Source of the DNA: Candidatus Parcubacteria bacterium
GTDB taxonomy: Bacteria > Patescibacteriota > Minisyncoccia > Phycocordibacterales > UBA6065
Direction: 5' to 3'
Assembly (NCBI GenBank): GCA_039796155.1
Contig: JBDKKJ010000005.1
Span: 1-48,237, forward strand
Length of the DNA stretch: 48,237 nucleotides
Below are positions 28,425 to 45,838 of the stretch, piece after piece (position 1 is the first letter of the stretch; each line of letters starts with the position of its first letter). The notes under the pieces are model-generated. The model had not been told where the DNA came from. It was given only the letters and a program-made list of their open reading frames with translations, and did not search any database. The position numbers and the translations under genes were made by a program.

Positions 28425-29135
28425 ATGTTACATTTCAAACACCACAAGGAATGGCTCACCACACCAATAGCCATTATCATAGCAGGGGCTTTAATAGCAA
28501 TCGGTATCTATTTAGGAGCTCTAAACATAGCCTCTAAGGGAGCTATAGCTGCAAAACCGGCCACGGCACCTGTCGCACCTGTAAAAATTAAACCTGTAAC
28601 TGCAGCGGACCATGTTATGGGTAACCCAAATGCAAAGGTTGTTATTGTTGAGTACTCAGACACTGAATGTCCGTATTGCAAGAGTTTACATTCAACACTC
28701 AATAAACTCGTTGCTACCTACGGAAAAGATGGATCTGTGGCATGGGTATACAGGCACTATCCTATCGACAGACTTCACTCAAAAGCACGCAAACAAGCTG
28801 AGGCAAGTGAGTGTGCTGCAGAACTTGGTGGAAACAAAGGTTTCTGGGAATTTTTAAATGAACTCTATGCAACTACTCCGTCAAATAACGGGCTTGATCC
28901 CGCAGAACTACCAAAGATAGCTAAAAAGGTTGGGCTCGACGTAGCTAAATTCGAAACCTGTCTTTCAAGTGGAAAATATACAGAGCTTATTGATGCACAG
29001 ATAAAAGATGCACTTGCGGCCGGAGCCAAAGGTACACCCTACAGTGTCATGATTACCAAGTCAGGAACAATACCACTCAAAGGAGCAGTGCCTTACGAAA
29101 ACCTTGAATCTATTCTCAAAAGTAATCTCAAATAA
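28425..29135 (+). CDS. DsbA/BdbD-like thiol-disulfide oxidoreductase (thioredoxin fold)
   Basis: TM anchor, EYSDTECPYC, YRHYP and GTP cis-Pro motif. Confidence 0.9.
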   Translation: MLHFKHHKEWLTTPIAIIIAGALIAIGIYLGALNIASKGAIAAKPATAPVAPVKIKPVTAADHVMGNPNAKVVIVEYSDTECPYCKSLHSTLNKLVATYGKDGSVAWVYRHYPIDRLHSKARKQAEASECAAELGGNKGFWEFLNELYATTPSNNGLDPAELPKIAKKVGLDVAKFETCLSSGKYTELIDAQIKDALAAGAKGTPYSVMITKSGTIPLKGAVPYENLESILKSNLK

Positions 29136-29175
29136 ATAAAAGAAAACCGCACACTGTGCGGTTTTCTTTTATTTA
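29133..29175. terminator. Bidirectional terminator ending dsbA and the 18-kb minus-strand island
   Basis: 20-bp stem taaataaaagaaaaccgcac-act-gtgcggttttcttttattta, spanning both stop codons. Confidence 0.85.
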
Positions 29176-29568
29176 CTTAACGACGGTGATAATACCTCTC
29201 TTGTTTGCATGAAAATGATCATGGAACCTCCACGTACCCGCTCTATCAAATGTAAACTGCCATGTTTCACCTGGACCCACAGGCTGACGTGGGTCAAACT
29301 CTGGATAAAGTTCATGTGTAGGATGAAGATCAGATGCGGGCCAGAAATTACAAGAAGCTTCCGACAAAGGGCAGTCTTCTGGCGCACCGTTCACAAATAA
29401 AATTGCCTGACCTTTTTGTATGGTAACTTCGGAAGGACTAAAACCATCTCGTGTCATTACTATCGTTGCAGATGGCTGCACTGCTACTGATTTTTTAAAT
29501 ATAAAATATCCAGCCACACCAACGACAGCTAATACAACTAAACCTAAGTAAATATTCTTTTTAGACAT
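29173..29568 (-). CDS. Membrane-anchored cupredoxin-fold protein (His-rich, no type-1 Cys)
   Basis: GFSPSEVTIQKG..F.N, WPASDLHPTH, PGETWQFTF..AGTWRFHDH and GIITV. Confidence 0.8.
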   Translation of the reverse strand: MSKKNIYLGLVVLAVVGVAGYFIFKKSVAVQPSATIVMTRDGFSPSEVTIQKGQAILFVNGAPEDCPLSEASCNFWPASDLHPTHELYPEFDPRQPVGPGETWQFTFDRAGTWRFHDHFHANKRGIITVVK

Positions 29569-30049
29569 ATTTTTTTATTAAAGTGCTACCAAGTACACCC
29601 AAGGCGAGGCCCCCACAAACAAGTCCTGTAAATAAAACATACGGCTGTTTCTGAGTAGATTCACCTTTTACAACCACGACATCAAAACTACTCTCGGAAA
29701 GAGTCTTTGATCTATCTTCGAATCTTATAAAGAGCTTGTAAGTCCCCTCTTCTGGGAAAATAAAGCTAAACCCTGTTTTTCCAAACTCACCGCGTGCTAT
29801 TGGGCCAGCAAAGAATAATTTATTATTCTTTTGAATTCGAACCCAGGCACTTGAAAATGGTATGTCTTCACGTGTATCTGCTTTAAGTAATGATAAATCC
29901 ATTCGAATGAATTCATTACTGATAAATTCAGCACTATATCCGATATCGAAGTAGTAGTCCCCCACTTTTTGTTCAAGAGAAAGACCGTCACCATGTGCAA
30001 AAATTGTAAGGGGTAGAAGAGATAGTAAGAAAATAAAAACGTATTTCAT
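29561..30049 (-). CDS. Exported YtkA/Ig-like protein with predicted mature N-terminal His and C-terminal anchor
   Basis: Signal peptide ...IFA|HGDG, F.FPEEGTY.L and C-terminal TM helix. Confidence 0.65.
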   Translation of the reverse strand: MKYVFIFLLSLLPLTIFAHGDGLSLEQKVGDYYFDIGYSAEFISNEFIRMDLSLLKADTREDIPFSSAWVRIQKNNKLFFAGPIARGEFGKTGFSFIFPEEGTYKLFIRFEDRSKTLSESSFDVVVVKGESTQKQPYVLFTGLVCGGLALGVLGSTLIKKYV

Positions 30050-30089: not shown

Positions 30090-31388
30090 TTAGTTTGAAT
30101 TCGTAAGACATTTTGTCTGCCACTGTGTGGGCAACAACATACAAAGCTTGGTAAAGTCTTTTGATTCTGGCGCATAGAGAAAACCGGCATAATAAGACAT
30201 TTCTTTATAGCAAACTTCCCCGACACCGCGTTCTGCAGCGTAATCACAAATGGCAACAGCTCTCTCAATAAGAAGTCTGTCGGTCTCAATTAATCGAGAC
30301 GCAGTATTGGCAAAGCACTGCGCCTTAATATCCAAAGGCAATTCCAAACACAACTTCTTCATTTTATCCGTATCAAATTGATAGGATGCCATAAGACCAT
30401 AGAAAAGTTTATTGAAACATTTCTTTTTCTCACCTGTATCAAGAGCATACGAACAGTAATCAATCACACCTTCGGTGGTACGTAGTGAGCCTTCACTTTC
30501 AATAACCCACGCCTCTCGAAAACAAGCGGTTCTCACAGTGTCAGAAAACGTATCGCAAAAGTTCTTGTAAACGCCCTGCCAACCAGCTTTCCAACAAGCG
30601 CCCTTTTGTACACCCGCCTCATACTGTTCACACACAGAGATGGCGTCCTTTTTTGGAATTAATTTATAGATAAGGCCGAAATCATCCGGTTCCCGAGGTT
30701 CAAATACTTGCATAAAAATACCCTCGTAGCAGGTTTCACGATAATCTCTTCCATCTGGTCTCTGAGCTAGCGCATCACACACCTTTGCCGACTCAACAAC
30801 ATTTGCATCAGCCAAATACATAGAAAGATGCCCTATCTCGTGATAGCAACTCGATTTTTCCTGATTAGTGGGATTCCAACCCTCTCTCTTCTCACAAATA
30901 TCCTTTAAGTCAGGCAGTAAATCATGAATTTCCACGCCGGAAAGTGAGGCCTTACTAAATCTTTCTTGTAGAGCGCCATGAAGACACCCATTGGAACATA
31001 TACCAACAGGGCAACGTGTCATGATACTTCGCCACTGTGCTGGATCTTTATAATACTCGTTTGCACTTATTTTATGAGCAGCAGCATGGCAAAACCAATA
31101 AGTATCATTTTGCTTCTGAACAAGCCTAACAACATCAAAAGCTTGCTCCAATGAAACGCCTTGGTTCATAATTTTTGGTATCTCAGTGTCATAGCAAGCT
31201 TGAGTAGAACTACCAGAAGCACCGCACAAGCTCAACACACCTTCAGCGAAGATATCAAGCTCAGCATCGCTGTGAATTCTTTGAGCCTTACTAGTGTAAA
31301 GAAAGAACAAAAGACCGATTACAAGCAAAGAAAAAGCTAACACGGTTGCAAGCAATTTTATCAGAGCTTTAGTATTTCTTTTTACCAT
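30090..31388 (-). CDS. Cys/His-rich helical-repeat exported protein, paralog 1
   Basis: TM anchor; CHAAAH, CSNGCLHG, CYHEIGH and CYEGIFM. Confidence 0.75.
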   Translation of the reverse strand: MVKRNTKALIKLLATVLAFSLLVIGLLFFLYTSKAQRIHSDAELDIFAEGVLSLCGASGSSTQACYDTEIPKIMNQGVSLEQAFDVVRLVQKQNDTYWFCHAAAHKISANEYYKDPAQWRSIMTRCPVGICSNGCLHGALQERFSKASLSGVEIHDLLPDLKDICEKREGWNPTNQEKSSCYHEIGHLSMYLADANVVESAKVCDALAQRPDGRDYRETCYEGIFMQVFEPREPDDFGLIYKLIPKKDAISVCEQYEAGVQKGACWKAGWQGVYKNFCDTFSDTVRTACFREAWVIESEGSLRTTEGVIDYCSYALDTGEKKKCFNKLFYGLMASYQFDTDKMKKLCLELPLDIKAQCFANTASRLIETDRLLIERAVAICDYAAERGVGEVCYKEMSYYAGFLYAPESKDFTKLCMLLPTQWQTKCLTNSN

Positions 31389-31394
31389 ACAAGC

Positions 31395-31766
31395 TTATTT
31401 CTCTATTACTGTAATTGCTCCTACAAAGTAAGGTGCGAGATGATCATGAAATTTCCACACACCCTCCCTCTTAAACTGAAAGGTCCATGTTTTGTCTTTA
31501 GCGATTGGCACCCGTGGATCAAACTCTGGATACAACTCATGTGTCGGATGCAGGTCTGACGCTGGCCAGAAATTTCGATCTATATCTGCTTGGAATGTAA
31601 CCTTATCACCCTTGTCGATAGTTACTTTTGAGGGGTAAAAACCTTTCTCGGTAAGTGCGATAAAAAACACCTTAGGTGTTTTTTGAAAGGCGCCAGTTTG
31701 TATAAAGAAATAGATACATAGCATTACAACCACTACAGTACAGCCTGTAATAACTTTATATATCAT
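31395..31766 (-). CDS. Membrane-anchored cupredoxin-fold protein (His-rich, no type-1 Cys)
   Basis: GFYPSKVTIDKGDKVTF, WPASDLHPTH and GVWKFHDH. Confidence 0.8.
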   Translation of the reverse strand: MIYKVITGCTVVVVMLCIYFFIQTGAFQKTPKVFFIALTEKGFYPSKVTIDKGDKVTFQADIDRNFWPASDLHPTHELYPEFDPRVPIAKDKTWTFQFKREGVWKFHDHLAPYFVGAITVIEK

Positions 31767-31768
31767 GT

Positions 31769-33046
31769 TTATTCAGCAGTACGCTTAAGTTCTGATTGCT
31801 GCCGATTTCCACTAAAACACTTTTCGTTCCATGGCACTGGCATCACCGCACAAAAAGATTTAAAAGCTTCACTTCCCTGATGGAAATTAAATGTTGAGTA
31901 TTTTAAAAGCTCTTTGAAACAGAGATTATCGACATCATACATTGCACCTTTTTCGCATAATGCCACAGCGCTCGGGCCATTTCTATAATCAGTTTCAATT
32001 AAACGCGATGACGCCTGTGCAAAGCAATTACCGCTATATTTTGAAGGCATCGCTGAGCAGTAGTCAAACACCTTGTCCTGATTAAAGCCCATTTGTGCTG
32101 TGTACACGTAAAGTAACGCATTAAAACAGCGACCCCTCTCCTGTTTTTCGCTAAGGTAGTTGCAGTGATTGATAAGATTCTCTGGCTTATACAACTCTTC
32201 TCGAAACAATGGCCAGCTTTCTGACCAACATGAACCCTTTTGTTTTCCTGCATAATCGTCACAGAAGGCCTTTACATGTTTCTTATCAACCTCCTTCCCT
32301 ACAATAAGCGCAAAGTCATCTGGTTCGAGAGGCTGAAATATTTGCATGAATGAACCGTCAAAACAAAGCTGAGAATAGTCGTTTTCTGGTTTAACAGTCA
32401 TCTCTTTGCAAAGCGAAACTGACTTGCGAATATCGGCGCCTGTCACGTACATAAAGAGATGCCCGAGCGCATGATAACAACTCGCCTTCTCAAGACCTGT
32501 TGGGTTGAAACCTGATCTGTTTTCACATACATTTTCAAACTGCGGCTTTAACACCTCAATTTCTTCGTCCGTAAGAACTTCTTTTCTAAAACGCTCCTGA
32601 AAGGCGCCGTGAATACAACCATTCGAACAAAGCCCTGAAGGACAACGCTTAATTACATCCTGCCATTTGTCAGGATCAACCGCAGTTTCTCGTGCTGCCA
32701 GTTTGTGACCCAATACATGACAGTAACGGTATGAAGGATCCTCATCCTGAATCAATCGAGTAACTTGAAAAGCATCCTCCATGGATATTTGCCCCATGAG
32801 TTTTGGGATCTCGTCGTCATAGCACGTAGGTTTATATTTTGATGACGAACACTTTGTTACAGTTGTATGTGCTAGTACCGTAAAATCCCCACTTTTAATC
32901 GAGCTACCCCCCAGGAGTGACAACTCGACCACAACAGCCAACAATAAAACTCCAACAAGCGAGAAAACAATTTTATTCTTTAAGAATTCTTTTCGCAGAA
33001 ACTTAAATGCCGCATGGAGATGTCTAACCCTGTGATCAAAAATCAT
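31769..33046 (-). CDS. Cys/His-rich helical-repeat exported protein, paralog 2
   Basis: CHVLGH, CSNGCIHG, CYHALGH and CFDGSFM; close paralog of 30090-31388. Confidence 0.75.
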   Translation of the reverse strand: MIFDHRVRHLHAAFKFLRKEFLKNKIVFSLVGVLLLAVVVELSLLGGSSIKSGDFTVLAHTTVTKCSSSKYKPTCYDDEIPKLMGQISMEDAFQVTRLIQDEDPSYRYCHVLGHKLAARETAVDPDKWQDVIKRCPSGLCSNGCIHGAFQERFRKEVLTDEEIEVLKPQFENVCENRSGFNPTGLEKASCYHALGHLFMYVTGADIRKSVSLCKEMTVKPENDYSQLCFDGSFMQIFQPLEPDDFALIVGKEVDKKHVKAFCDDYAGKQKGSCWSESWPLFREELYKPENLINHCNYLSEKQERGRCFNALLYVYTAQMGFNQDKVFDYCSAMPSKYSGNCFAQASSRLIETDYRNGPSAVALCEKGAMYDVDNLCFKELLKYSTFNFHQGSEAFKSFCAVMPVPWNEKCFSGNRQQSELKRTAE

Positions 33047-33074
33047 ACACCAATTATATCATCTAAATATGTGC

Positions 33075-34553
33075 CTAAGGTGCTACACACAACTTTCTGT
33101 ACTTAATATCGATAGTTGCACATATAGAAGCCTGTTTTTCTGGTGGGTAATAAGCACGGATACCGCCAAAGGCCATCTTAATACATTGGATCCTCTCGTC
33201 CTCAAGGAGCTTTTCTGACATACAAAAAGCGACCGCTGCCTCATACTCTTTACCTGGAGTTCCAAACTCCATGATTCCACTTGGAATACCCTGCAAACAC
33301 GGTACAACCAAATCCTTTCTTGCAGAATGACACGCGTCAATGGTATTTTCAAAATCTTCATCAAAAGGTTGTTTAAAACGCGACGGTACAACGCCAGACA
33401 AACTTCTCATTGCAAGAGCCGCATACTTATTTTCATCATCTATCTTTTCAACAAAATGAATTCCCTTCTTGAGATCACCCTGTGCCAAACGCATACCCAA
33501 AGTATTCATTTCTTGGTAGCACGGATTTTTTATGCGAAATTCATCCCAATTTTTACACACCTCAAAAGGATTTGTGACACTATCAAGGCGCAAATTATAT
33601 GAATTTGCCATATACATAAGTGCCAACGAATTAAATACACCAGAAACACATCTGTAAAAATGAGGTTCTTTTGAATCGACTTTATTACAAAGCTCTATAC
33701 CCGGCGAAACGAGCGCGATTGGATTACCCCACGCACGAGGATCGCTCCCGTCAGCAGCACCGTGTCCTATACCGTGATAACAAGCACCCTCAGCGTTTGC
33801 GCTTTCCTTTGAGAGTATCTTACCTGCATCAGTACAAAATTTTCTTGCATCATCGAGATTTCCCGATAACTGCAACATTTCCTCCATAAAGCCGTGATAA
33901 AAACCATAACTACAATAAGATGTTTTTCCTGTAAGTTTTATAGTACCCCCCTCTTCAAACACATGGTACGCACTTTTCCCGAGTATATGAGATACGGCAT
34001 GACATGAATCTTTGAATGCAGGTTCGTTATTATACAGAAACGCCATTCTATCAAGCGCTTTTTCTAAGCCCTCTTTTTTAAGAACGCCTACCACATCTAT
34101 TTGATAGCACTCACTTGGAGTAGAGTTCTTATTTTTACAGTCTGGTAAGACCACCTTACCTGTTTTACTCAGCACGACTATCTCCCCTTCCACTACAGAC
34201 GCCAAATGATCATGGAATTTCCACACACCAGGATTTTGAAAACTGTATGTCCATGTATCATTGGGCTTTAAAGGTCTTCTTGTATCAAACTGAGGATCAA
34301 CATTATGAGTTGGATGTGGATCAGATGCAGGCCACACTTCGTGTGTTGAGTCATTTATAAATGTAACTACATCGCCCATGTTTACAACCAAACGTCGTGG
34401 CGATAAACCACTTTCATTAAACCTAATCTCTTTAATGGGTGAAAGCGCTAGATCATCACTCCTATATTTTAAAAATAGAATTGGGATAATCACACACAAA
34501 AAACCGATACTTATAACTATCTTTATATTTTTAATTTTCAGAAGACTCTTCAT
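33075..34553 (-). CDS. Fusion of His-rich cupredoxin and Cys/His-rich helical-repeat domain (paralog 3)
   Basis: N-terminal WPASDPHPTH..WKFHDH; C-terminal CHAVSH, CSYGFYHG, CYHGIGH and CVSGVFN. Confidence 0.78.
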   Translation of the reverse strand: MKSLLKIKNIKIVISIGFLCVIIPILFLKYRSDDLALSPIKEIRFNESGLSPRRLVVNMGDVVTFINDSTHEVWPASDPHPTHNVDPQFDTRRPLKPNDTWTYSFQNPGVWKFHDHLASVVEGEIVVLSKTGKVVLPDCKNKNSTPSECYQIDVVGVLKKEGLEKALDRMAFLYNNEPAFKDSCHAVSHILGKSAYHVFEEGGTIKLTGKTSYCSYGFYHGFMEEMLQLSGNLDDARKFCTDAGKILSKESANAEGACYHGIGHGAADGSDPRAWGNPIALVSPGIELCNKVDSKEPHFYRCVSGVFNSLALMYMANSYNLRLDSVTNPFEVCKNWDEFRIKNPCYQEMNTLGMRLAQGDLKKGIHFVEKIDDENKYAALAMRSLSGVVPSRFKQPFDEDFENTIDACHSARKDLVVPCLQGIPSGIMEFGTPGKEYEAAVAFCMSEKLLEDERIQCIKMAFGGIRAYYPPEKQASICATIDIKYRKLCVAP

Positions 34554-35596
34554 TATATAAGAATTTTAGCCTGTTCATTACAGTATTCTTTATCAACGGA
34601 ACTCAATCCTTCACACAACACTCCCATTTTATTTCGTGTTGTTGGTTCTGCAAAAAAGGCCCAAGACGCTCCTGCACGACATTCAAGCAAATCTTGATGT
34701 TTCGGCATGAGCTCACACTGGTTAATAGCCTCCTCGGAATTGTATTTAGAGCCGGCGGCTATTGTATTTCCCAAACCCTTAAAACACGCATCTCGCATAG
34801 ATCCGATCGGTGCCAAACCACACAGTAAACCTGTTTTAGCATAATCATGTGAGACAGTAGCGTAGTGCCAGGCAGGAAGCTCGAAATAACACGCTTGAGA
34901 GAACCTCTTGTTGACAGTGTCACACGGGAAGAGGGGCTTTTGGGAATCGAAAACTCTTCCCTGTGCACCCTGTATGCTCTGCATGGTATGAAAATTATAT
35001 TCCATGAAGACACCACTTTGACAGCCGTTAAACAATCCTTTCCAAGAAAGTTTTGAACAAACTTCGAGGGCTTTATCAAGTGAGTCATTTCCAAGATATC
35101 CCAACACTCCGTGACCAATACCATGAGGACATCCCAGACCCTTCGGACCAAACTTTTTTACACACAACTCATCAAGAGTAGTTACAGACTCAATTCCCCC
35201 ATCAGTTATTGCCCGTCCGAAAAAACTGTGATAACAGCCAAAGGCGAAAGATGCGTCACACACAACTATCCCGTTAATTCCCTCTTTCTCGTATATAAGT
35301 TCACCCATAATATGAGACAGGGTGTGAGCGATACCAAACCCCTTACCCTGGGTATCGATTTTAAAATCTTGATATGCCTTTTCGGCACCAACTGTGTCAA
35401 TTTCCTTTTTCCAAAAAGCGCGTTCTTTAGTATAGTTACCTGACCACAACACATCCAAAGAATCTTTTGGTTTGCTCTTAGTTGAAAAATACATGATAAC
35501 CAGAGAAAGTACCACCGCAAAAAGTACAACAATACTCGTCACCAGTACTTTATTTTTCAATAAAAAATGTTTATGTTGATTCCACATCACTTTCAT
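34553..35596 (-). CDS. Cys/His-rich helical-repeat exported protein, paralog 4
   Basis: AHTLSH, FGCYHS, CPHGIGH and CQSGVFME. Confidence 0.75.
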   Translation of the reverse strand: MKVMWNQHKHFLLKNKVLVTSIVVLFAVVLSLVIMYFSTKSKPKDSLDVLWSGNYTKERAFWKKEIDTVGAEKAYQDFKIDTQGKGFGIAHTLSHIMGELIYEKEGINGIVVCDASFAFGCYHSFFGRAITDGGIESVTTLDELCVKKFGPKGLGCPHGIGHGVLGYLGNDSLDKALEVCSKLSWKGLFNGCQSGVFMEYNFHTMQSIQGAQGRVFDSQKPLFPCDTVNKRFSQACYFELPAWHYATVSHDYAKTGLLCGLAPIGSMRDACFKGLGNTIAAGSKYNSEEAINQCELMPKHQDLLECRAGASWAFFAEPTTRNKMGVLCEGLSSVDKEYCNEQAKILI

Positions 35597-35603
35597 AACT
35601 AGA

Positions 35604-36623
35604 TTATAGCTTATTTACTCTGTCTGAAATATCCTTTTGTGAGGGGCACTCCTTAATATCTTTGCCTGAAAGTTTATCGCATACCTTTATAGAGTCGTTT
35701 CTTGCCTTTAATTCTGCAAAAAATGCCCACGCAGCCCGCTGTAAGCATGAAACCTCGCCTGCCTTTTCCTTAATGTAGGCACACGATTGCTGCGTTTTCA
35801 ATACATCATATTCAGAACTTGGAGCAGCTACATTACCGGTACCTAGATAACAAGCTTCTTTTTCTTTAGCTCCTACGATAGAAGCACAGAAATCGGCGGC
35901 ACGCGCAAAGTCATTTTTAAATATTCTAAGCCACCACTGGGGCTGTTCAAAATAACACGTTTCCCTATTCTTTGTAGGAATATCTGTACATGGTTCATAC
36001 GGTCTTTGTGGGTCAAACTTTCTATTTTCGGCGGAAACGACACTTTGCATTGTATGAAAGTTATACTCCATGAACACCCCACTTTGGCAACCGCCAAATT
36101 TTTCTTTCCAAACCAACTTATCACAGACACCAAGTGCTTCAACGAGTTTTTCGTCTCCGAAATACCCTAAAATTCCATGACCAATGCCATGAGGACACCC
36201 CAAGCCAAGACCCCAGCGTTTATAACACGCCTCAGCAAGTCTGGTAATAGAATCAAGACCTTCTGTAGCAATCGCTTTACCAAAAAAACTGTGATAACAG
36301 CCAAAGGCAAAAGCCCCGTCACAAACCGTAATACCCTTTTCGCCTTCACTCTCATAAAGGAGTTCGCCCATAATATGAGCCAGTGTATGTGCAACGTCAA
36401 ATTCTTTATCCGCTGTATCTTTTTTGAAAATTTCGTAGGCTTCTTCAGCACCCAGCTTTTTAATAGAAGCACGAAGCGCATCTTTTTCCTTTACATAATT
36501 ACCCACCCATAATTTTTGAAGCGGGTCTTGTGGATACCCTTGATCCTCGCTTTCCTTATAAATCAAAGAGCTGAGGCAGAAAAAGAGAATTATTACTGCA
36601 CTGACAAGATTTTTTGTTGACAT
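35604..36623 (-). CDS. Cys/His-rich helical-repeat exported protein, paralog 5
   Basis: AHTLAH, FGCYHS, CPHGIGH and CQSGVFME; close paralog of 34553-35596. Confidence 0.75.
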   Translation of the reverse strand: MSTKNLVSAVIILFFCLSSLIYKESEDQGYPQDPLQKLWVGNYVKEKDALRASIKKLGAEEAYEIFKKDTADKEFDVAHTLAHIMGELLYESEGEKGITVCDGAFAFGCYHSFFGKAIATEGLDSITRLAEACYKRWGLGLGCPHGIGHGILGYFGDEKLVEALGVCDKLVWKEKFGGCQSGVFMEYNFHTMQSVVSAENRKFDPQRPYEPCTDIPTKNRETCYFEQPQWWLRIFKNDFARAADFCASIVGAKEKEACYLGTGNVAAPSSEYDVLKTQQSCAYIKEKAGEVSCLQRAAWAFFAELKARNDSIKVCDKLSGKDIKECPSQKDISDRVNKL

Positions 36624-37819
36624 AATTTCTTTCGATCACCCTCCATACTGTTACAAATATATTCTCTACGTGATGCGTCTTGTATATAGAATTTAACCTC
36701 CGAAAAAAGTTCATTAAGACAGTCAGAATTTTTCATGCGCTTGTCTGCAAGTTCACAGAAGTGAACAGCGGCCTTTGGATCATTCTCACCTCCCCACAGC
36801 ATAGAACCAAGTGCAGACAGTATACAGTGTTTCTTACCATCAGCAGGCCCAGCAAGGTAACACCAATCAAGAACATTAGTTGCCTGGGCAGTGTTCATCT
36901 GATCAATCTTCCGAATATCGCGATTCTGAGCAAGAACTATGAATTCTTTACCAAAACCAGCAAAACAAGCCTTCCGATCTTCGCCAGTAAGAGGTTCACA
37001 GTATGTAAATGCCTCCTTGTACTGACTTGGTAAAGGATAACCGAGATCAGCCCCGGCGGTCTGAAAAAGATGGGGTGTAAGATATGTGTAACACATACCC
37101 CTCATTGATCCCGGCATAAATGATGCATCGCAAGGAAAAAGCGGATCACTCTTTTTGAAATATTTCTTAACCTTCTCTTGCCACATCTCCCTATCATGTA
37201 CTCCGGCAATCATTTCCATAATTGTACCCCCCACACACTCGATAGCCTCGCGACCATTAGCGCCGCCAAAACCAACCTTTTCACACATTTTTACAGCTAG
37301 AGGAAGCTCGTAGTCGTTAAACGCCAAAACACCGTGACCTAGTCCGTGAAAACACATTGTATATGCCCCAGTACCTCCTGGAGCCTGCTTGCAAAGCTCA
37401 GCAATTTCAGCAAGTGAATCAGGTCCCTTTTCAAGAAGAGTGCCGATCACAATAGTGTGTGAACACGCGTTTCTAAAATCCTGATCACAAATCAATATAC
37501 CCTTGGCACCTTGCTGTTTATAAAGAATATCCCCCACTATATGCCCTAACAAATGAACGTCTATTCCAGCTGGAAGCGGTGCACGTTTCAGAACCTCGAA
37601 CGCGTAAGGTGCTCCTTTTTTATTGGCAACATTTGCAAAGAAAACAGACAAATCCTTAAAAGATGCATCTGGCTTTATTTGGGAAATCTCTTCGTACGAA
37701 GCATTTGAGCTCTGAAAAAGATACATTCCCATTAGAAAACAGCTTGAGGTCAAAAATATGATAGAAAGACCCAACCAGCCGACGCGATGCCACGCTGATT
37801 TAATATGTTTTCTCATCAA
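36593..37819 (-). CDS. Cys/His-rich helical-repeat exported protein, paralog 6
   Basis: VHLLGH, NACSHT, CFHGLGH and CVGGTIME. Confidence 0.75.
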   Translation of the reverse strand: MMRKHIKSAWHRVGWLGLSIIFLTSSCFLMGMYLFQSSNASYEEISQIKPDASFKDLSVFFANVANKKGAPYAFEVLKRAPLPAGIDVHLLGHIVGDILYKQQGAKGILICDQDFRNACSHTIVIGTLLEKGPDSLAEIAELCKQAPGGTGAYTMCFHGLGHGVLAFNDYELPLAVKMCEKVGFGGANGREAIECVGGTIMEMIAGVHDREMWQEKVKKYFKKSDPLFPCDASFMPGSMRGMCYTYLTPHLFQTAGADLGYPLPSQYKEAFTYCEPLTGEDRKACFAGFGKEFIVLAQNRDIRKIDQMNTAQATNVLDWCYLAGPADGKKHCILSALGSMLWGGENDPKAAVHFCELADKRMKNSDCLNELFSEVKFYIQDASRREYICNSMEGDRKKLCQQKILSVQ

Positions 37820-37829
37820 GAGGTTAGAA

Positions 37830-38369
37830 CTACTTTACGACCACCATTCCTGCAGGACCGCTTGAACCATCACATCCGAAACCATAAATGCCTACACCCA
37901 TTCCAAATGTAGCCTTTATAATCTTGCTTGAGTTAGCGGGAATTTTGAATATCTTGTCAGCATTAAATACAATTGAGTGTTCGACAGTGTCATCGTTCAC
38001 AAAAGATATATCTGAATCATTAATTACACCTGATACGGTTGGCTTTGCTGTACATGAAGATATATTGACTGTTTTTGTGTCAACGGCCGAACTGTACACA
38101 CGCTGTACAAAAGCTTGTTTTTCCGCTTCAGTCGCATCTGGCTTTGGTGAATTAAGAAGAGCCTTTGCCTCCACTTTATCTGCCTCACTCAACTTTTTAG
38201 TAGGATCAACGGGAACAGGTTTTGAAACAGGGGCTGTAACCGGTGCTTTAACTGGTGCTTTAACTGGTGCTGATACTGAAGAGAGGGACTGCTTCTGATA
38301 AATCTTAAATCCGAGAAACGCCGCCGCTACGATAAGTACACCGAGAATTATTTTTAGAGCTGTATTCAT
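37830..38369 (-). CDS. Membrane-anchored degenerate cupredoxin-like protein
   Basis: TM helix, (K/T)APV repeats, ISFVNDDTVEHSI, IPANSS, GIYGFGC and GMVVV. Confidence 0.6.
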   Translation of the reverse strand: MNTALKIILGVLIVAAAFLGFKIYQKQSLSSVSAPVKAPVKAPVTAPVSKPVPVDPTKKLSEADKVEAKALLNSPKPDATEAEKQAFVQRVYSSAVDTKTVNISSCTAKPTVSGVINDSDISFVNDDTVEHSIVFNADKIFKIPANSSKIIKATFGMGVGIYGFGCDGSSGPAGMVVVK

Positions 38370-38453: not shown

Positions 38454-39551
38454 CTATCTAATCTGCACCGTTTTGTAGTCTGATATCAAGCGGTAGTTGG
38501 CATCCACCAAACTCTTAAAACCTGAATCCTTCTTATACAGTGATACTGCCGCCTGAAAAGCCTTTTGAGTTTCGCGTGCTTTTCGAGAGAAAAGAACCAT
38601 CGTGTTCCCCGCATTGATGGCATTAATACCTGCGTCTGTGATTGAACTCTGTCCATTAGTAATAAACGGCATACTTGATACATCATCAGTAATAATTATT
38701 CCTCGAAAGTCTAAATCTTCTCTTAAAATACGCATAATATCTCTAGAAAAACTTGCTGAGTTTTTTGGATCAATACTTGTATACACAGCATGATTAGTCA
38801 TAATAAAACCCGCACCCGCTTTAATTCCTTCTTGAAATATCTTAAAAGACTGTTCGAGCTCCGGGTAACCTTCATCAAAATAAGGCACCATTTCATGTGG
38901 ATCAGTCACTGAAACACCGATACCGGGAAAGTGTTTAAGCGTGGTAGAAATACCCTGCTGCTTCATAAGCTCTATAAAATGAGTATTGAAGGCAATAAAG
39001 TCCTCAATATTTCGTGAGGGAGAACGTTTAGATATAAAAGAATTTTCAATTGAAGTAAAATCCGCAACAGGTGCCAGATCAACATTTATACCAATATCAG
39101 ACATTTTTTTAATGTCCTTGGCAAATAAGTCCCAATTAATTTTTTTTGAGTTTCTAAAATCTTCGAATAAATCAAGTCGTGTTGCACCAGCCGGCTCCTC
39201 GTCAATAAAAATGAAGTAGGGCTTGCCGGTTGTTTCTTTCGCAAACACCTGAAGATCCTTGATAAGTGTTGAAAGTTGTTCGGTGTTCTCTATGTTAACC
39301 TGTCTATATATAATGATTCCACCTGGTTTTATAGCGCTTAAAAAGTTTTTGGTTCCTTCGTTTAATCGTGTACTATCGATACCTACAATAAAGTTCTGAC
39401 CTACTTTTACCTCATCAGCAACCTCAACAATCCCATCGAAATGTTGGGAGAAGAAAACTTTATACACAAACACGCACCCTATCAGTAAAATTAGACCAAT
39501 AAGGAACGATGTTGCTCGCGGACATTTTTTATACTTTGGTAAAGACAACAA
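38454..39551 (-). CDS. Glycoside hydrolase family 3, NagZ-like beta-N-acetylhexosaminidase, membrane-anchored
   Basis: PGGIII, IFIDEE, DLAPVAD, KHFPG, TDPH, IMTNH and FRGIIITDD; N-terminal TM helix. Confidence 0.88.
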   Translation of the reverse strand: MLSLPKYKKCPRATSFLIGLILLIGCVFVYKVFFSQHFDGIVEVADEVKVGQNFIVGIDSTRLNEGTKNFLSAIKPGGIIIYRQVNIENTEQLSTLIKDLQVFAKETTGKPYFIFIDEEPAGATRLDLFEDFRNSKKINWDLFAKDIKKMSDIGINVDLAPVADFTSIENSFISKRSPSRNIEDFIAFNTHFIELMKQQGISTTLKHFPGIGVSVTDPHEMVPYFDEGYPELEQSFKIFQEGIKAGAGFIMTNHAVYTSIDPKNSASFSRDIMRILREDLDFRGIIITDDVSSMPFITNGQSSITDAGINAINAGNTMVLFSRKARETQKAFQAAVSLYKKDSGFKSLVDANYRLISDYKTVQIR

Positions 39552-39554
39552 TAA

Positions 39555-40067
39555 TTAAGGTGTTATATAAATATAACCAACTGTAACCCTAGGTTCTCCA
39601 CATACATATGGCAATATCCTTCTTAAAACATTTTCGTTAGTCCATGTCAACACGCTCGTTGAAGCGGTTTCCCCGGGTTTTATACTTATAGACTGTTTTC
39701 CTACTTGAATTCTAATATCTTCCTCGGAGAGGTTCTTGAAACCAACTTGTTCTCCTTTTCTTATGTGCACTGTAGCTGGAAAAGGATTACAGCCATCCAT
39801 AACCACCGTTGAAGCTTCAATTGCGGCCGCTTTTGCATACAAGAAATACTTTTCCATACTATCCTTCGGCATTGGTCTAAAACCTGAAAGAAGATTATCG
39901 GCTGCTGTTGCATAAGGATTGCCCTCTAAGTTTGTTTTAAATCGGTATTCCGTCACATCTGAAGCCAGAGATTTTTTATTCCGCATAATATTGTCCGTGT
40001 ATAACACAACACCAACAATTATTGAGCTGAGTAGACCGAGATAGAAAGCAATGTACAACTTGTTCAT
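39555..40067 (-). CDS. Membrane-anchored degenerate cupredoxin-like protein
   Basis: GCNPFPATVHIRKGEQVGFKN, IKPGET, YVC and GYIYI; similar layout to 37830-38369. Confidence 0.55.
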   Translation of the reverse strand: MNKLYIAFYLGLLSSIIVGVVLYTDNIMRNKKSLASDVTEYRFKTNLEGNPYATAADNLLSGFRPMPKDSMEKYFLYAKAAAIEASTVVMDGCNPFPATVHIRKGEQVGFKNLSEEDIRIQVGKQSISIKPGETASTSVLTWTNENVLRRILPYVCGEPRVTVGYIYITP

Positions 40068-40914: not shown

Positions 40915-41478
40915 TTACTTCATTTTCAGTTCTGCAATTTCCGCTTTAAGACTATCAATCTGCTTTTGCTGATCCTTAATTGCTTCTATAAGTGGAGCAA
41001 CAAGGTTTCCGTATTGGACTGATTTCATACCGTTCTCACTTGTGCTTACGAGTTCTGGATACACTTTTGCAACATCTTGCGCAATGAGTCCCATGCTCGG
41101 TGTTTTATCCTTTTTCCATGTGAATGTTACACCTTGAAGTTTGAGAATATTTGAAAGAGCGCTATCAAGTGGCTTGATATTGTCTTTAAGACGTCGGTCT
41201 GATGTATAAAAATAGCCAGTAGCACCAACGTTTCCATTCACATCAAGGTTATACGAAGGTGACATGCCGACACCCAGTTTCTGGTTGAACTGTGAGTTGA
41301 GTGTTGCAACAAATGCTCCTACGCTCAAGTTCCCTGACTTGGTCTGTGCGGTAGCACTGTCGTTTATAGGAGTCGCAGTGTTACCACTTGTTGGTGCAAA
41401 TGCAGGGTTGCTCCACACCTGAGCGGATGCCCCTGATGCAATCGTCAACAATGTGAGTGAGAAAATAATCTTTTTCAT
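40915..41478 (-). CDS. Secreted protein with Peptidase S74 / tail-fibre intramolecular chaperone domain
   Basis: Signal peptide, TSDRRLKDNI, GLIAQDV..VYPELV, V.YGNLVAPLIEAIK and coiled coil. Confidence 0.88.
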   Translation of the reverse strand: MKKIIFSLTLLTIASGASAQVWSNPAFAPTSGNTATPINDSATAQTKSGNLSVGAFVATLNSQFNQKLGVGMSPSYNLDVNGNVGATGYFYTSDRRLKDNIKPLDSALSNILKLQGVTFTWKKDKTPSMGLIAQDVAKVYPELVSTSENGMKSVQYGNLVAPLIEAIKDQQKQIDSLKAEIAELKMK

Positions 41479-41821: not shown

Positions 41822-43060
41822 TTAAAATTCTTGATAGCGTGGGTCAAAATTTGCTGGGTTAAGCGTAACATCAACAGTTCGTACAAGATTTGAGTTTGTT
41901 GAGGTGCCTGTAAGTCGGATTGTGTATGGTCCTGTAAATGCTGGTGCACCCGCAACTCGTGTTACTCGAACCCTGAGCCCCGCGCTCGCTGAGTATGGTG
42001 TTGGGATAGTGCTTGTAAGTGAGCCAGATCCCTTGGCATAGTAGTTTGTACCTCCATTGAGAGAATACATAAACGTTGTACTTGCGATTGTTGGTGGATA
42101 GTTTGAAATCCCAATAACTACAGGATTTGCTGCCGTAACAAAGGCTGCATTAGGAGCGACTGGAACAAGCTTTGTTTCAGAATCAGCAGTTCCTGTTGGA
42201 AGAATCTGTATTGTCATATTCTGATTTGAACCAAGGGTGTAATCCTGAGGTTGAGGTGCAACCGTGAAACTTACCTGTTTCGAAACAGTAGGATTTGTAC
42301 AATCAATGCTATATGTGTGAAGACCTGAAACACTCAAAGCATCCTCAATCTGTGATCCAGATGTTGTTTTTCCTGTAATAGGGGTGCTAAATGGACTACC
42401 TCCAACTGTCTTTGTAACGGCACAAGAACCCGAGATATTTGTGAGTGTCCACAAGAACGTAGGAATCGTAGCATATGTTACCGCGCCATTATTTACTATA
42501 GAGATACCGCCATTTTGTACATCAAGACTTGCATCACCAATCATTTTCACACCATTAGCACCAGCCGCATCAAAACTGATCCAACCCATCACAGCGTTTC
42601 CCCAGGCGTACCCAGAAAAAGTAGTACCTGAAAGCGTCACACCGTAAGCCGGCGAAGTACCTGAAAATGAAATCCATCCATCCCAGCCACCACCATTTGA
42701 AAGTACTCGCGCCCAACCCCGCAATGCACCACCAACTACTTGTGCATCCTGAGTATATGTACCCGTTCCTACTGGAAAACCAGACGTCAAATTACCAAAT
42801 TGAATCCAACCTACATTTGATGACCATGCGTAACCAGGAACACTACACGTATCGTTTCCACAAAGTCTTCCATCTGCTGTCTTATGAACTCCATAATCTG
42901 CGGTTCCGCAAGTTCCTGTATTCGTACAATTGAAGCTAATCCAACCGATATTTGATGACCAGGCATAACCCGAGAGATTGTGTTGGGTGCCAGCAGATGC
43001 GAAAAAAGGAATCACCGAAAGCGCAATAATAAAGAGAAATTTAAAAAATACTGATTTCAT
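41822..43060 (-). CDS. Secreted protein with four GYAW..GWI(S)F repeats and C-terminal Ig-like domain
   Basis: Signal peptide from MKSVFF; start set by the extended -10 at 43068-43076 and the upstream terminator; ends PRYQEF. Confidence 0.75.
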   Translation of the reverse strand: MKSVFFKFLFIIALSVIPFFASAGTQHNLSGYAWSSNIGWISFNCTNTGTCGTADYGVHKTADGRLCGNDTCSVPGYAWSSNVGWIQFGNLTSGFPVGTGTYTQDAQVVGGALRGWARVLSNGGGWDGWISFSGTSPAYGVTLSGTTFSGYAWGNAVMGWISFDAAGANGVKMIGDASLDVQNGGISIVNNGAVTYATIPTFLWTLTNISGSCAVTKTVGGSPFSTPITGKTTSGSQIEDALSVSGLHTYSIDCTNPTVSKQVSFTVAPQPQDYTLGSNQNMTIQILPTGTADSETKLVPVAPNAAFVTAANPVVIGISNYPPTIASTTFMYSLNGGTNYYAKGSGSLTSTIPTPYSASAGLRVRVTRVAGAPAFTGPYTIRLTGTSTNSNLVRTVDVTLNPANFDPRYQEF

Positions 43061-43114
43061 TACGTATATCATACCAGTTGACAGACCTAAGCTCAATATA
43101 CATATTAACAGTCG

Positions 43115-43157
43115 AAACAAAACACCCCGCGGCCTACGGCCGCGGGGTGTTTTGTTT
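43115..43157. terminator. 20-bp inverted repeat, terminator of the 888-aa gene
   Basis: aaacaaaacaccccgcggcc-tac-ggccgcggggtgttttgttt. Confidence 0.85.
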
Positions 43158-43166
43158 TTAAAACCT

Positions 43167-45833
43167 TTAGAATTCTCTGTATCCAGGATACAAAGGACGT
43201 GAATCAAGATTAACTGTCGCTGTTTGTGTGATGGTCCCAACCTGACTATCTACACCAACGCCCCTGAAGGTTATTGAATACGTACCCGTCTCAGAAAGTT
43301 TCTTATTGAAGCGTACTCTCACTGGCAGAAACTGTAATCCACCACTGTTAAGAGTAAATGGAATGGTGAGATTCGGCGAAAAGTCTGACCCGTTATAAGA
43401 GAACACAGGCTCTACATCTGCCGGAGCAGATGAAACCTCAAGTGAAACCGGTGCTGTAAAGTATGAAGTGTTCACCGAAAGATTAATCGTTTCATCAGCA
43501 GCGCCAGCATATCCGGCAACTGATCGAATCTTTACATTATTTGGCGTTGCAGAAAGACTGAATGATGGTGCTACACATATGTTTCCTGACACATTCACGG
43601 GCTTACTTCCAGGACACACACAGGTTGAACCTGACTTTACCTTATCTCCAGAACACACAACTGGTGGCGGTACTACCGTACATGTTTTAGCCACTGAGTA
43701 ATTCTTACCTTCACAACTAATTGAATAGCTTGTACCGCTGATATTCTCGAAACCACTCGCTGGTTTCGAACCACAACTCGCTACTCCCGTCACATTCCAT
43801 GTGACTTGATTATAACTAGTACCCATTGCTGTTCCCCAATTGTATCCAAGATACCCTCCGTCATGATTATCAGTCACACTTCCAGAAGCGGGATATACAC
43901 AACCCCCGCCGCCGGTACCTGTACCCGTATTCCCTCCAGGACCACTAGTACATGACGGATCTGTTGGATTTAGAGTACAGAAACTTGGCGGTGGTGTAGC
44001 GGCTACGGTAAATGCCTTTGTTCCACCGAACCACTCTTCACCTTGTTCTACAGCCTGCAACACATAGCTACCTGGAGTAGTTGGTGCGGTCATGCCTACT
44101 GTTTTTTGACCTCCAATACCGGTTGTAGCAAGATTCGCAAAAAACACAGCGTTCTGACCAACAGGCAAAATACCCAACTGATGTCCAGCACCCCATGTTT
44201 TTGTACCATTATTAGTTACAGAAACATTAAACGACTGTCCAGGAGTTACTTGTGATGGGAATGAATTATACGTTATACCGTTTTGAGGTATACCAACAGT
44301 CACACAATCTCCACTTGCGTTAACAGTCATACCTGTGGGAACTGATGCTTGATCGCCTCCGATGTTTGGACACACGTCTATTGTTGGTGCAGCTGCAACC
44401 GTTACCGAAGCGCTTCCCGACCACGGATTCATGTTTGTACCCGTACAACTGAGATTAAATGTTGATGCCTGTGATACAGATACTGTTTGATTTCCCGAAG
44501 TTGCCTTTGTGCCCGACCAAGAACCTGATGCGGTACACGAATTAGCACCAGATGCAGACCAGGTTATCGTCACGTTTCCCCCACCTGATGAAACCTGTGT
44601 CGGAGACACGCCAATGGAACCAGTTATGTCGCCCGGAGGACTAACGGGCGGTGCACAGTTGATCGTTGATTGCCCTATGTATGCATTCGGTTCTGCAGTT
44701 GTATCTATGGCATATGCATATATGACTCTGTTTGAATTTGTTTTAAGACTCACTGGAGTCGGATAACTATAATTACCACTTGAATCAGTTGATGTGTTTC
44801 CTCCCCAGCTACCACTGCCCGCAGGTCCGTCTACATAAAAATGAACACTTACAGATTGTCCTGGGGTATTTGAATCAGTTGCACTTCCTGAAAACGCACT
44901 ACACCCCGCACTGAAACTTCCTGTCGGAGGATTGTTTGTCACCGGTGGAGCTACACATGTATATGAACTATTAAATACATAACTGTTATTACATATACAA
45001 TTAGAGCCGCTGATTGAGGTTCCTGTTGGTGCACTCGCCTGTGTTCCCGGAATGTTTGCGCACACGTCAGTGGTGGTAGTTGTAGTATCTACACAATCAC
45101 CACTCCCATTAATTTCTTTGCCTGTCGGTACCGAAGTTTGAACCCCATCTATATTTGGACACACGTCAGTGGGCGGTGTTATACAGTCACCGATATTTAT
45201 CGTATGACTGATAGTTCCTGATACAGCCCCTTTTGCATCAGTTGCCCAAGCGGTATACGTGATTGAATCTGGACCTTTATCTAAACTATCGTTCTCAGAA
45301 ATACCCGTACTCCCATCACCCCCGCCCGCGTTCGCAAATGCCACACCATCTTTACGAATATTTACATACATCAGATTTCCATCCTGATCATCCGCAGTTG
45401 CCTGAATTTGATAAAGTGCGTCACACTGAGCTGATGCCGGCACTGATGTCCAAGAGATTGTTGGAGCACTGTTTGCAGGTCGTGCGCAATAAATATCTTT
45501 GAACCATTTACTACTTACACATTTAAAACCTTCCCATGCTCCATTTTTCCAAATAATTGAATACTCACTATTACACCTATCATACTGACCCAAGACTGCA
45601 TCATACGTATACGTCTGATAGCCACTCATTTCACAAAGGTGGTCTGCCGTTGGACCATCATTGTAAAAGTTCTGCGTAACATTTGCGTAAGGTACGCCAA
45701 AGTTATATACATTAGAAACATCAACCCATCCACACTCTTTTCCGGCCGGACACGTCGCAGCAAATACCTGGGTTAATCCAGCAACCAATATGAGCACACC
45801 CGCAAACAAACTCGATAGAAGTATTTTTTTCAT
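43167..45833 (-). CDS. Large secreted modular surface protein (Ig-like domains, Cys-rich DVCxNI repeats)
   Basis: Signal peptide, three copies of DVC(P/A)NIxGxQxSxPTG, Thr/Gly/Ser-rich, ends PGYREF. Confidence 0.75.
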   Translation of the reverse strand: MKKILLSSLFAGVLILVAGLTQVFAATCPAGKECGWVDVSNVYNFGVPYANVTQNFYNDGPTADHLCEMSGYQTYTYDAVLGQYDRCNSEYSIIWKNGAWEGFKCVSSKWFKDIYCARPANSAPTISWTSVPASAQCDALYQIQATADDQDGNLMYVNIRKDGVAFANAGGGDGSTGISENDSLDKGPDSITYTAWATDAKGAVSGTISHTINIGDCITPPTDVCPNIDGVQTSVPTGKEINGSGDCVDTTTTTTDVCANIPGTQASAPTGTSISGSNCICNNSYVFNSSYTCVAPPVTNNPPTGSFSAGCSAFSGSATDSNTPGQSVSVHFYVDGPAGSGSWGGNTSTDSSGNYSYPTPVSLKTNSNRVIYAYAIDTTAEPNAYIGQSTINCAPPVSPPGDITGSIGVSPTQVSSGGGNVTITWSASGANSCTASGSWSGTKATSGNQTVSVSQASTFNLSCTGTNMNPWSGSASVTVAAAPTIDVCPNIGGDQASVPTGMTVNASGDCVTVGIPQNGITYNSFPSQVTPGQSFNVSVTNNGTKTWGAGHQLGILPVGQNAVFFANLATTGIGGQKTVGMTAPTTPGSYVLQAVEQGEEWFGGTKAFTVAATPPPSFCTLNPTDPSCTSGPGGNTGTGTGGGGCVYPASGSVTDNHDGGYLGYNWGTAMGTSYNQVTWNVTGVASCGSKPASGFENISGTSYSISCEGKNYSVAKTCTVVPPPVVCSGDKVKSGSTCVCPGSKPVNVSGNICVAPSFSLSATPNNVKIRSVAGYAGAADETINLSVNTSYFTAPVSLEVSSAPADVEPVFSYNGSDFSPNLTIPFTLNSGGLQFLPVRVRFNKKLSETGTYSITFRGVGVDSQVGTITQTATVNLDSRPLYPGYREF

Positions 45834-45838
45834 GGGTG

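Follow-up and report, generated by a model that had tools for sequence, protein, structure and literature searches.

A conserved histidine/methionine patch on disulfide-stapled helical-repeat proteins of Patescibacteria: a candidate copper center with Cys-less cupredoxin partners

Patescibacteria (the candidate phyla radiation, CPR) account for a large share of bacterial diversity and combine tiny genomes with few recognizable redox or metal systems. A 48,237-nucleotide stretch of contig JBDKKJ010000005.1 from a Candidatus Parcubacteria bacterium (assembly GCA_039796155.1, positions 1 to 48,237; hereafter the window) poses the question of why 7.7 kb of a 672 kb genome should be devoted to six copies of a single uncharacterized family, here termed par1 to par6. 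All copies of the family in this genome (672,516 bases, 88.9% complete) fall inside the window; they share five invariant His and, in all but one, a Met. Taken as a whole, the evidence is on balance best explained if these residues form an undescribed copper center that works with unusual cupredoxin partners.

The six genes are minus-strand open reading frames (ORFs) that, by the ORF list, together span exactly positions 30090-37819. With the small genes of the same strand they are tightly packed, gaps or overlaps being 1-40 nucleotides, and they look translationally coupled. At the borders, par3 and par4 share a single base, the ORF p162 and the last cupredoxin gene of the run (both described below) overlap by 8 nucleotides, and par5 as listed begins 31 nucleotides inside the end of par6 (36593-36623), its true start perhaps lying further in. 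Pairwise identity is 38% for par1/par2 and 47% for par4/par5, the pairs taken for the more recent duplicates in the initial annotation of this DNA, and 16-22% for all other pairs. A MAFFT alignment of the six copies retains 20 invariant columns, including H101, H105, H137, H183 and H187 (par1 numbering, used throughout for the solenoids), ten Cys, G186 and G223; par3 has Asn at residue 226, where the other five copies have Met. The five invariant His proposed earlier from manual alignment are thereby recovered, and all the motifs quoted for the two halves can be read in the translations: CHAAAH/CSNGCLH through VHLLGH/FRNACSH in the first half, CYHEIGH through CFHGLGH and CYEGIFM through CVGGTIM in the second, along with the Asn-bearing CVSGVFN of par3. 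The par1 and par5 proteins have totals of only seven and six His, five of which are the invariant ones, and hence the shared His pattern is no effect of composition; judged by these alignments, the sharing of such a motif among paralogs of 16-22% identity is far beyond chance.

The family has no counterpart among named domains. Searches of par1 to par6 against Pfam (E up to 1) returned only spurious sub-threshold matches, along with a sub-threshold cupredoxin at the N-terminus of par3, and those against NCBIfam models and PDB sequences (E up to 10) returned no match. A word-indexed search recovered 101 proteins, all 'hypothetical' and none with a Pfam domain, whose named source organisms are Patescibacteria, candidate-phylum names or plain 'bacterium'. 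In an exhaustive profile search, 6,780 cluster representatives passed an E-value limit of 1e-3 and 1,749 a stricter limit of 1e-30; chains of up to seven solenoid domains occur, the longest in one protein of 3,580 residues (P0102). Protein atlas searches yielded unnamed clusters only, including one of 212 residues that matches just the His-bearing N-terminal half. A search of sequencing runs found DNA matches only in freshwater metagenomes, with no RNA run among the matches listed, an outcome that says nothing about expression, and a pattern scan of metagenome contigs with par6 found no related locus. We found no paper describing this solenoid family in the literature.

The wider homologs allow the depth of conservation to be gauged from several sets, which overlap and are not de-duplicated. 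None of the five His varies across 148 diverse homologs, in which M226 is conserved to at least 90%. Among 320 aligned domains, 297 show H-H-H-H-H-M, while the others comprise four with Asn226, three with Met137, one with His226, two degenerate internal copies and 13 partial domains. The five His and the Met are thus retained well beyond the window, as a deep alignment had been called upon to establish. The par4/5 subfamily has the full set in 119 of 119 domains. A further set of 74 related loci was obtained from public genomes by a pattern scan with the par1/2-type alignment and is biased in that every locus has a par1/2-type gene; here 235 of 356 domains have five His plus Met, nearly all others being par3-type, with Asn or another residue at 226, or partial. 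In 795 domain rows pooled from three overlapping sets, conservation of the His reaches 98-100%, and at residue 226 Met accounts for 85% and Asn for 10%.

Beyond these residues, the Cys and a few Gly flanking the His, no position is conserved family-wide in the 795 rows, and the C-terminal repeats are variable. The near-invariant small residues beside the His are G134, G138, G186, G223 and G/A104. There is no family-wide carboxylate near the His, which speaks against a site of the di-iron type, and positions 141 and 222 differ between subfamilies. Q/E141 and D/E222, considered as extra ligands common to the family, were rejected since the par4/5 subfamily has mostly Gly at 141 and mostly Ser or Gly at 222. 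Likewise, the HEIGH of par1 is not to be read as the HExxH of a zincin: its Glu is not conserved, position 184 being mostly Gly or Ala.

AlphaFold2, run on par1 with the 148-row alignment, returns an all-helical model with a predicted local distance difference test score (pLDDT) of 95.0 and a predicted template-modeling score (pTM) of 0.90; the N-terminal half alone gives a pLDDT of 93.3. The ligand-bearing helices are every second helix of this model, namely A (101-114), B (131-144), C (175-192) and D (217-229). The helices alternate between two layers, in one of which A to D would lie side by side. By hhalign, the repeat units are mutually homologous with probabilities up to 96%, and the His-bearing units match the C-terminal ones at 77-93%. 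The Cys covary perfectly in pairs: C100 and C131 occur together in 200 domains and are jointly missing from 100, no domain having just one of them; for C126 and C135 the corresponding counts are 267, 42 and none; and the remaining Cys pairs are essentially invariant. The covariation points to one disulfide in each repeat, with an extra one linking the starts of helices A and B; about ten disulfides brace the fold. The helical-repeat scaffold stapled by disulfides that the initial annotation had suspected is thus well supported by both model and covariation. Given the N-terminal hydrophobic segment found in each of the six paralogs, together with the disulfides, the proteins are predicted to be membrane-anchored and outward-facing. 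Mutual information with average product correction, computed over 289 domains for helix contacts, brought out only two disulfide pairs, the rest being subfamily signal. Searches with Foldseek against the PDB and with VIA-align in wide mode, using the whole model and the N-terminal domain, listed only generic HEAT, ARM and designed repeats (Foldseek E 0.01 or higher; best VIA-align Z 8.2, to designed repeat proteins).

The two halves of the ligand-bearing region are related to each other. When half 1 is aligned with half 2 profile to profile (41 columns, E 8.5e-6, probability 83%), H101 falls on H183, H105 on H187, C126 on C204 and C135 on C220, in agreement with the pseudo-symmetry of the HxxxH helices that had been noticed by eye. 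A different register from the one first given emerges when the repeats are set on their conserved disulfide Cys. In the unit alignments C135, C181 and C220 are equivalent and, by the AlphaFold2 helix limits, lie 4-7 residues into each inner helix; on this anchor H101, H137 and H183 fall together (anchor+2), as do H105, H187 and M226 (anchor+6). The Met had been placed in the register of the third His (H137), an assignment that depends on C131, a supplementary Cys found in no more than 201 of 309 domains; on the conserved anchor, M226 pairs with H187 and H137 with H183. The anchor+2 and anchor+6 positions would face away from the hydrophobic stripe, M226 sharing the heptad position of H187, and would thus form a 4 x 2 surface array whose two leftover cells are the subfamily-variable positions 141 and 222. 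Such an array would allow either a split into H101/H105/H137 and H183/H187/M226, or a central H137/H183/H187 flanked by M226 on one side and H101/H105 on the other. That it holds two coppers in a His3 plus His2Met arrangement, as the initial annotation had in mind, seems to us rather doubtful.

The behavior of residue 226 bears on whether the patch has ligands at all. We assigned the solenoid ORFs of the 74 loci (349 in total, 1-12 per locus) to classes by their best-matching window paralog, namely A (par1/2), B (par3), C (par4/5) and D (par6), with counts of 101, 111, 82 and 54. Five His plus Met occur in 100/100 complete domains of class A, 83/83 of class C and 51/52 of class D. In class B the five His are kept in 96 of 106 complete domains, and residue 226 in these 96 is Asn in 73, Thr in 8, Asp in 6, Ser in 5, Gly in 2 and His and Met in one each. 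The replacement of Met by Asn first seen in the cupredoxin-fused copy is, therefore, a trait of the whole par3-type subfamily. A rule by which Asn would accompany any cupredoxin fusion is to be discarded, since 15 of the 17 motif-bearing fusion proteins in the protein set keep Met in all domains; Asn tracks the par3-type subfamily, fused or not. The ten class B copies that lack several of the His come mostly from loci with many B copies: L074, L087 and L095, for instance, have multi-copy cupredoxin-fused class B genes, some of them His-depleted (e.g. H-D-H-x-N-x). Such copies are either decaying duplicates or have changed function. Finally, ligand-type swaps are seen in which H137 becomes Met (three domains) or M226 becomes His (one in the 320-domain set and one in the 74 loci).

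A residue that is strictly Met in three subfamilies, polar or small in the fourth and exchanged with His at the patch fits a ligand better than a packing residue. This weighs upon the alternative that the His and Met are purely structural, as part of a structural Zn site or a hydrogen-bond network, or else act as axial ligands of heme. His/Met and bis-His are indeed the classical axial pairs of heme; yet the proteins have no CxxCH or other heme motif, heme supply outside the cell is, as far as we know, doubtful in such reduced genomes, the disulfides already brace the fold, and both the polar substitutions of class B and the position of the Met off the hydrophobic stripe argue against packing. 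We regard this alternative as extremely unlikely.

The six copies are not the product of a recent local expansion, which is ruled out by the combination of phylogeny and gene order. In a tree of 148 sequences, par4/5, par6 and par3 fall on separate lines with support of 0.99-1.0, and par1 and par2 are each closer to homologs in other genomes than to one another. The related loci display a recurrent order: p179 (a small membrane-anchored protein), D, C, an optional second C and A, after which come fused B copies, a free cupredoxin with p162, or both. Read on its minus strand, the window has p179, D, C, C, fused B, A, cupredoxin, A, p162 and cupredoxin, its sole departure being that the fused B precedes the first A. 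All four classes co-occur in 27 of the 74 loci, many of these loci being truncated at contig ends. Tree and gene order together imply that the six copies are members of four old, non-redundant subfamilies, and the cluster is by this comparison a conserved gene set of Patescibacteria. Within the phylum the family is sparse, being present in 14 of 301 sampled genomes. Most titles of the 74 loci name Patescibacteria or candidate-phyla lineages, and some name Gammaproteobacteria, Verrucomicrobiia or Acidimicrobiales. The title 'uncultured Gammaproteobacteria' stands on several of L030, L033, L053, L074, L083, L085, L087, L088, L090, L091 and L095, and there are single Verrucomicrobiia and Acidimicrobiales records; these odd-titled records of metagenome-assembled genomes may reflect wrong labels or a family that reaches beyond Patescibacteria.

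The most regular companion of the solenoids is a cupredoxin. Among the six paralogs, par3 alone carries an N-terminal cupredoxin-like domain, which scores below the Pfam cut-off (Cupredoxin_1 E 0.005) and is recovered by a dedicated cupredoxin profile with E 6.6e-35; the two free cupredoxins of the cluster reach the Pfam cut-off of 27 bits (Table). The subfamily shows an invariant W-P-A-S, H73 and H76 and a near-invariant H107-D108-H109, with no conserved Cys or Met. When the subfamily profile is aligned with amicyanin (E 3.6e-6), Asp108 takes the position of the type-1 Cys; by this match and the Pfam scores these partners are recognizable as true cupredoxin homologs. The type-1 ligand set of His, Cys, His and Met is not conserved in them, H73, H76, H107 and H109 being found instead, and a His-rich, non-blue site is suggested by the conserved motifs HPTH and HDH. 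Pfam recognizes a fused cupredoxin in 12 of 49 long homologs of the solenoids; with the dedicated profile, 119 cupredoxin ORFs are found in 61 of the 74 loci, 79 of them fused to a solenoid as in par3. Of the 14 genomes with the solenoid family, 10 also hold the Cys-less cupredoxin, a figure that comes from comparing two tables and in which related genomes are not independent. A complex prediction for the par1 ectodomain and the neighboring free cupredoxin scored 0.03, which gives 'no answer' either way. The genome has a fourth Cupredoxin_1 match on another contig, C7 (L098:1194-1574, plus strand), a protein of 126 residues with Cys- and Met-containing motifs, which lies directly 3' of a 348-residue multi-pass membrane protein (L098:144-1190, plus strand) and is of a kind unlike the cluster cupredoxins. 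Single-domain cupredoxins annotated as plastocyanin are mentioned for Patescibacteria in one publication (PMC12931201).

The second companion is p162. Its homologs occur in 26 of the 74 loci and adjoin a free cupredoxin in 22 of these 26. In 27 of 27 homologs a His directly follows a signal-peptide-like segment, after which cleavage would make it the first mature residue, and Glu, Asp, Tyr and Trp are conserved as well. Against Pfam (E up to 1), p162 has no match to DUF1775, CopC or LPMO families, nor does it match a PDB sequence; it is also without similarity to two small ORFs of locus L013. On this pattern p162 is a candidate histidine-brace copper protein. Homologs of the third small protein, p179, precede the par6-type gene in 20 of the 74 loci; C106 and C166 are invariant in 28 of 28, and it has no conserved His or Met.

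These partners also help in weighing which metal the patch might bind. That it binds a metal of some kind we consider likely, and that the metal is copper has in our view a somewhat better than even chance. Copper is favored by the exposed invariant Met, ligands that are otherwise only His, the interchange of His and Met, the lack of conserved carboxylates, the disulfide-rich outward scaffold and partners drawn from two copper-protein lineages. Under a different proposal the patch would bind Zn, Ni or Fe, for uptake or hydrolysis, one version being an extracytoplasmic iron-handling module like EfeO/FtrB. His3-type sites are common for Zn, EfeO offers the precedent of a Cys-less cupredoxin joined to a helical metal-binding domain, and single fusions of the solenoid to a GH3 glycosidase and to Wzy_C would suit a hydrolytic or envelope role. 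However, no FTR1 permease, Peptidase_M75 or P19 was found in the genome, which at 88.9% completeness does not prove their absence; the solenoids match neither M75 nor another Pfam domain; no conserved Glu or Asp is available to complete an HExxH or HxxE motif; and the invariant exposed Met and the N-terminal-His partner favor copper over Zn or Fe. We therefore hold the choice of another metal to be quite unlikely.

Other genes of the neighborhood are collected with the cluster in the Table.

Table. Features of the window, in order of position on the forward strand (lengths in residues).
Feature	Positions	Strand	Length	Remarks
Fe/Mn superoxide dismutase C-terminal domain match	4646-5245	+		
DsbA-like thioredoxin-fold protein	28425-29135	+		Opposite strand to the cluster; Thioredoxin_4 E 1.2e-24, DSBA E 9.6e-16
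Second free Cys-less cupredoxin	29173-29568	-	131	Last gene of the run; Pfam Cupredoxin_1 35.5 bits
p162	29561-30049	-	162	Signal peptide, His19 as predicted first mature residue, beta-rich domain, C-terminal membrane helix
par1, class A (par1/2-type) solenoid	30090-31388	-	432	N-terminal membrane helix; five His plus Met
par1 His/Met patch, residues 100-227	30708-31091	-		Helix A, H101 and H105; B, H137; C, H183 and H187; D, M226; from re-translation, invariance in alignments and AlphaFold2 helix limits
Free membrane-anchored Cys-less cupredoxin	31395-31766	-	123	Between par2 and par1; Pfam Cupredoxin_1 27.1 bits; conserved WPAS, H73, H76 and H107-D108-H109
par2, class A solenoid	31769-33046	-	425	Five His plus Met
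par3, class B solenoid with N-terminal Cys-less cupredoxin	33075-34553	-	492	Cupredoxin motifs WPASDPHPTH ... FHDH; five His plus Asn
par4, class C solenoid	34553-35596	-	347	Five His plus Met
par5, class C solenoid	35604-36623	-	339	Five His plus Met
par6, class D solenoid	36593-37819	-	408	Five His plus Met
p179, membrane-anchored small protein upstream of par6	37830-38369	-	179	Two invariant Cys
Membrane-anchored GH3 N-terminal-domain glycosidase	38454-39551	-		Directly upstream; Pfam Glyco_hydro_3 E 3.8e-38
Small membrane-anchored protein	39555-40067	-		Other side of the GH3 gene from p179
Peptidase_S74 (endosialidase-chaperone) domain protein	40915-41478	-		Adjoins the three large ORFs
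Three large ORFs	41822-47152	-	472, 888, 437	No Pfam match

The GH3 glycosidase is a neighbor in the window, and in P0102 seven solenoid domains are joined with a GH3 domain and LRV/HEAT repeats. As a linked partner it was rejected and is treated as occasional, since there is only this one fusion besides the window neighbor and no GH3 gene near the family in the 74 related loci (0/74). The other fusion partners among the 49 long homologs are likewise single cases: GH3 with LRV/HEAT, Wzy_C and FG-GAP. The small protein beyond the GH3 gene has homologs in only three loci. The DsbA-like protein is a plausible source of the solenoid disulfides, a DsbA homolog being found near the family in 5 of the 74 loci. 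Further off, the three large ORFs beside the Peptidase_S74 protein may be fibre-like surface proteins, and from the superoxide dismutase match the organism apparently meets oxygen.

Such surroundings bear on a further alternative, in which the patch binds no metal and is instead a surface for catalysis on, or recognition of, a polymer or partner protein (a glycan of the host's or its own cell wall, an anionic polymer or a peptide), the His acting as acid/base or pH-dependent binders. Extended ligands are the usual targets of alpha-solenoids, the occasional fusions and neighbors include GH3, Wzy_C, FG-GAP, PKD/DUF11 surface proteins and an M23 peptidase, and the variability of the C-terminal repeats is as expected of diversified binding surfaces. 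Set against this, the five His and the Met have no conserved Arg, Lys, Asp, Glu, Tyr or Trp nearby, and by themselves are to our knowledge unlike known glycan- or phosphate-binding or lyase sites; GH3 genes, as noted, do not recur beside the family, and the sole recurrent partners are metalloprotein-like. We judge a metal-free surface of this kind to be very unlikely.

Several observations also weigh against a copper center. The fold searches yielded only generic helical repeats, with no metalloprotein analogue among the matches listed, and Zn, Ni or Fe, too, are bound by sites made solely of His. The genome (88.9% complete) yielded no multicopper oxidase, and no obvious copper-requiring end function is visible. 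Class B lacks the Met, which thus cannot be essential to the function that the subfamilies share. Further, the Cys-less cupredoxin is present in 84 of the 301 sampled genomes (E up to 1e-8; the count includes one unpublished genome, G154, which no conclusion relies on) as against 14 for the solenoid; being far more widespread, it is no dedicated partner.

If the copper center is nevertheless accepted as the better account, the system may be pictured as six membrane-anchored, outward-facing alpha-solenoids, each helical repeat stapled by a disulfide, in which four consecutive parallel helices near the N-terminal end would present on one face a two-row array of five His and, in three of the four subfamilies, an exposed Met. 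The array would be a metal center, most likely of copper, comprising either a pair of neighboring sites, H101/H105/H137 and H183/H187/M226, or a single His-rich site next to which the Met lies. Four solenoid subfamilies, a Cys-less His-rich cupredoxin in free or fused form and a protein with a mature N-terminal His would together make up a surface module that most likely binds copper and hands on copper or electrons at the cell surface. Such a module might transfer electrons to O2 or some other acceptor, handle copper, or carry out oxidative chemistry on the polymers of the envelope. The most far-reaching version is a new class of cuproproteins with a binuclear His3 plus His2Met center on a disulfide-stapled alpha-solenoid, whose four subfamilies, Cys-less cupredoxins and N-terminal-His chaperone would form an extracellular redox or O2-activating machine, with one subfamily tuned from Met to Asn and hard-wired to a cupredoxin; this we think unlikely.

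To the initial annotation, the present analysis adds the subfamily rule for Met and Asn, the corrected register, the His/Met swaps, the four-class gene order and the invariant N-terminal His of p162. The solenoid family is absent from Pfam, NCBIfam and the PDB, and its patch of five His and Met is probably an undescribed copper-binding center. If so, it would represent a new protein scaffold for copper chemistry and point to an unstudied surface function (redox activity, the handling of oxygen or of copper, or an attack on host envelopes, for example) in organisms whose life is spent attached to other cells. The Met/Asn and His/Met variants and the fused and free cupredoxins offer ready comparisons for spectroscopy.

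Among known systems, the ligand set had been likened to that of the copper monooxygenases PHM (peptidylglycine alpha-hydroxylating monooxygenase) and DBM (dopamine beta-hydroxylase), which are non-coupled binuclear copper enzymes. In terms of residue inventory the comparison stands, the candidate ligands of the solenoid being three His plus two His and one Met. It does not extend to relationship: the catalytic core of PHM/DBM is a two-domain beta-sandwich and not a set of helical repeats, whereas the par1 model is all-helical, and Cu2_monooxygen and Cu2_monoox_C have no match in the six paralogs (Pfam, E up to 1). Membership in that family is thus excluded by the model and the lack of a sequence match. 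PHM has a CuM site of His242, His244 and Met314, a CuH site that includes His107 and His108, and coppers about 11 Å apart (PMC6123673). Unlike in PHM/DBM, the solenoid ligands come in i/i+4 pairs on helices, and one whole subfamily is without the Met.

Type-3 copper sites are built from HxxxH and further His of neighboring alpha-helices, and the HxxxH plus His on helices of the solenoids recalls tyrosinase, catechol oxidase and hemocyanin. The likeness ends there: the solenoids have five His plus Met or Asn rather than the six His (3+3) of a coupled dicopper site (only two domains have six), a disulfide-stapled solenoid rather than a four-helix bundle, and no Pfam match. Among the matches that Foldseek and VIA-align listed for the whole model and the N-terminal domain there is no type-3 protein, the best being generic repeats. 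A parallel confined to architecture is provided by the Helicobacter cysteine-rich proteins (Hcp) of the Sel1 type, which are secreted or surface proteins of alpha/alpha repeats with one disulfide each; the solenoids show the same plan by the AlphaFold2 model, Cys covariation and hhalign. We know of no His cluster in Hcp. The Sel1 repeat protein 3rjv_A aligns weakly (Z 5.8, root-mean-square deviation 6.2, 126 aligned), no better than designed repeats, and none of the six paralogs has a Sel1 Pfam signature (E up to 1).

The partners have parallels of their own. EfeO joins a Cys-less cupredoxin (Cup) domain to a helical His-bearing domain, much as the window cupredoxin is fused or adjacent to one; unlike in EfeO/FtrB, the solenoids have no M75 (HxxE) domain, and FTR1, M75 and P19 genes were not found in the genome (88.9% complete). 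From amicyanin and plastocyanin the partner cupredoxin differs in having Asp for the type-1 Cys and in failing to conserve the His and Met of the C-terminal ligand loop. As for p162, YcnI too has a C-terminal membrane anchor. An N-terminal His that contributes its amino group and imidazole defines the histidine brace in LPMOs, CopC, PmoF and YcnI (PMC8424229). With its predicted mature N-terminal His and conserved Glu and Trp, p162 resembles such histidine-brace proteins (LPMO, CopC, PCuAC/PmoF and YcnI).

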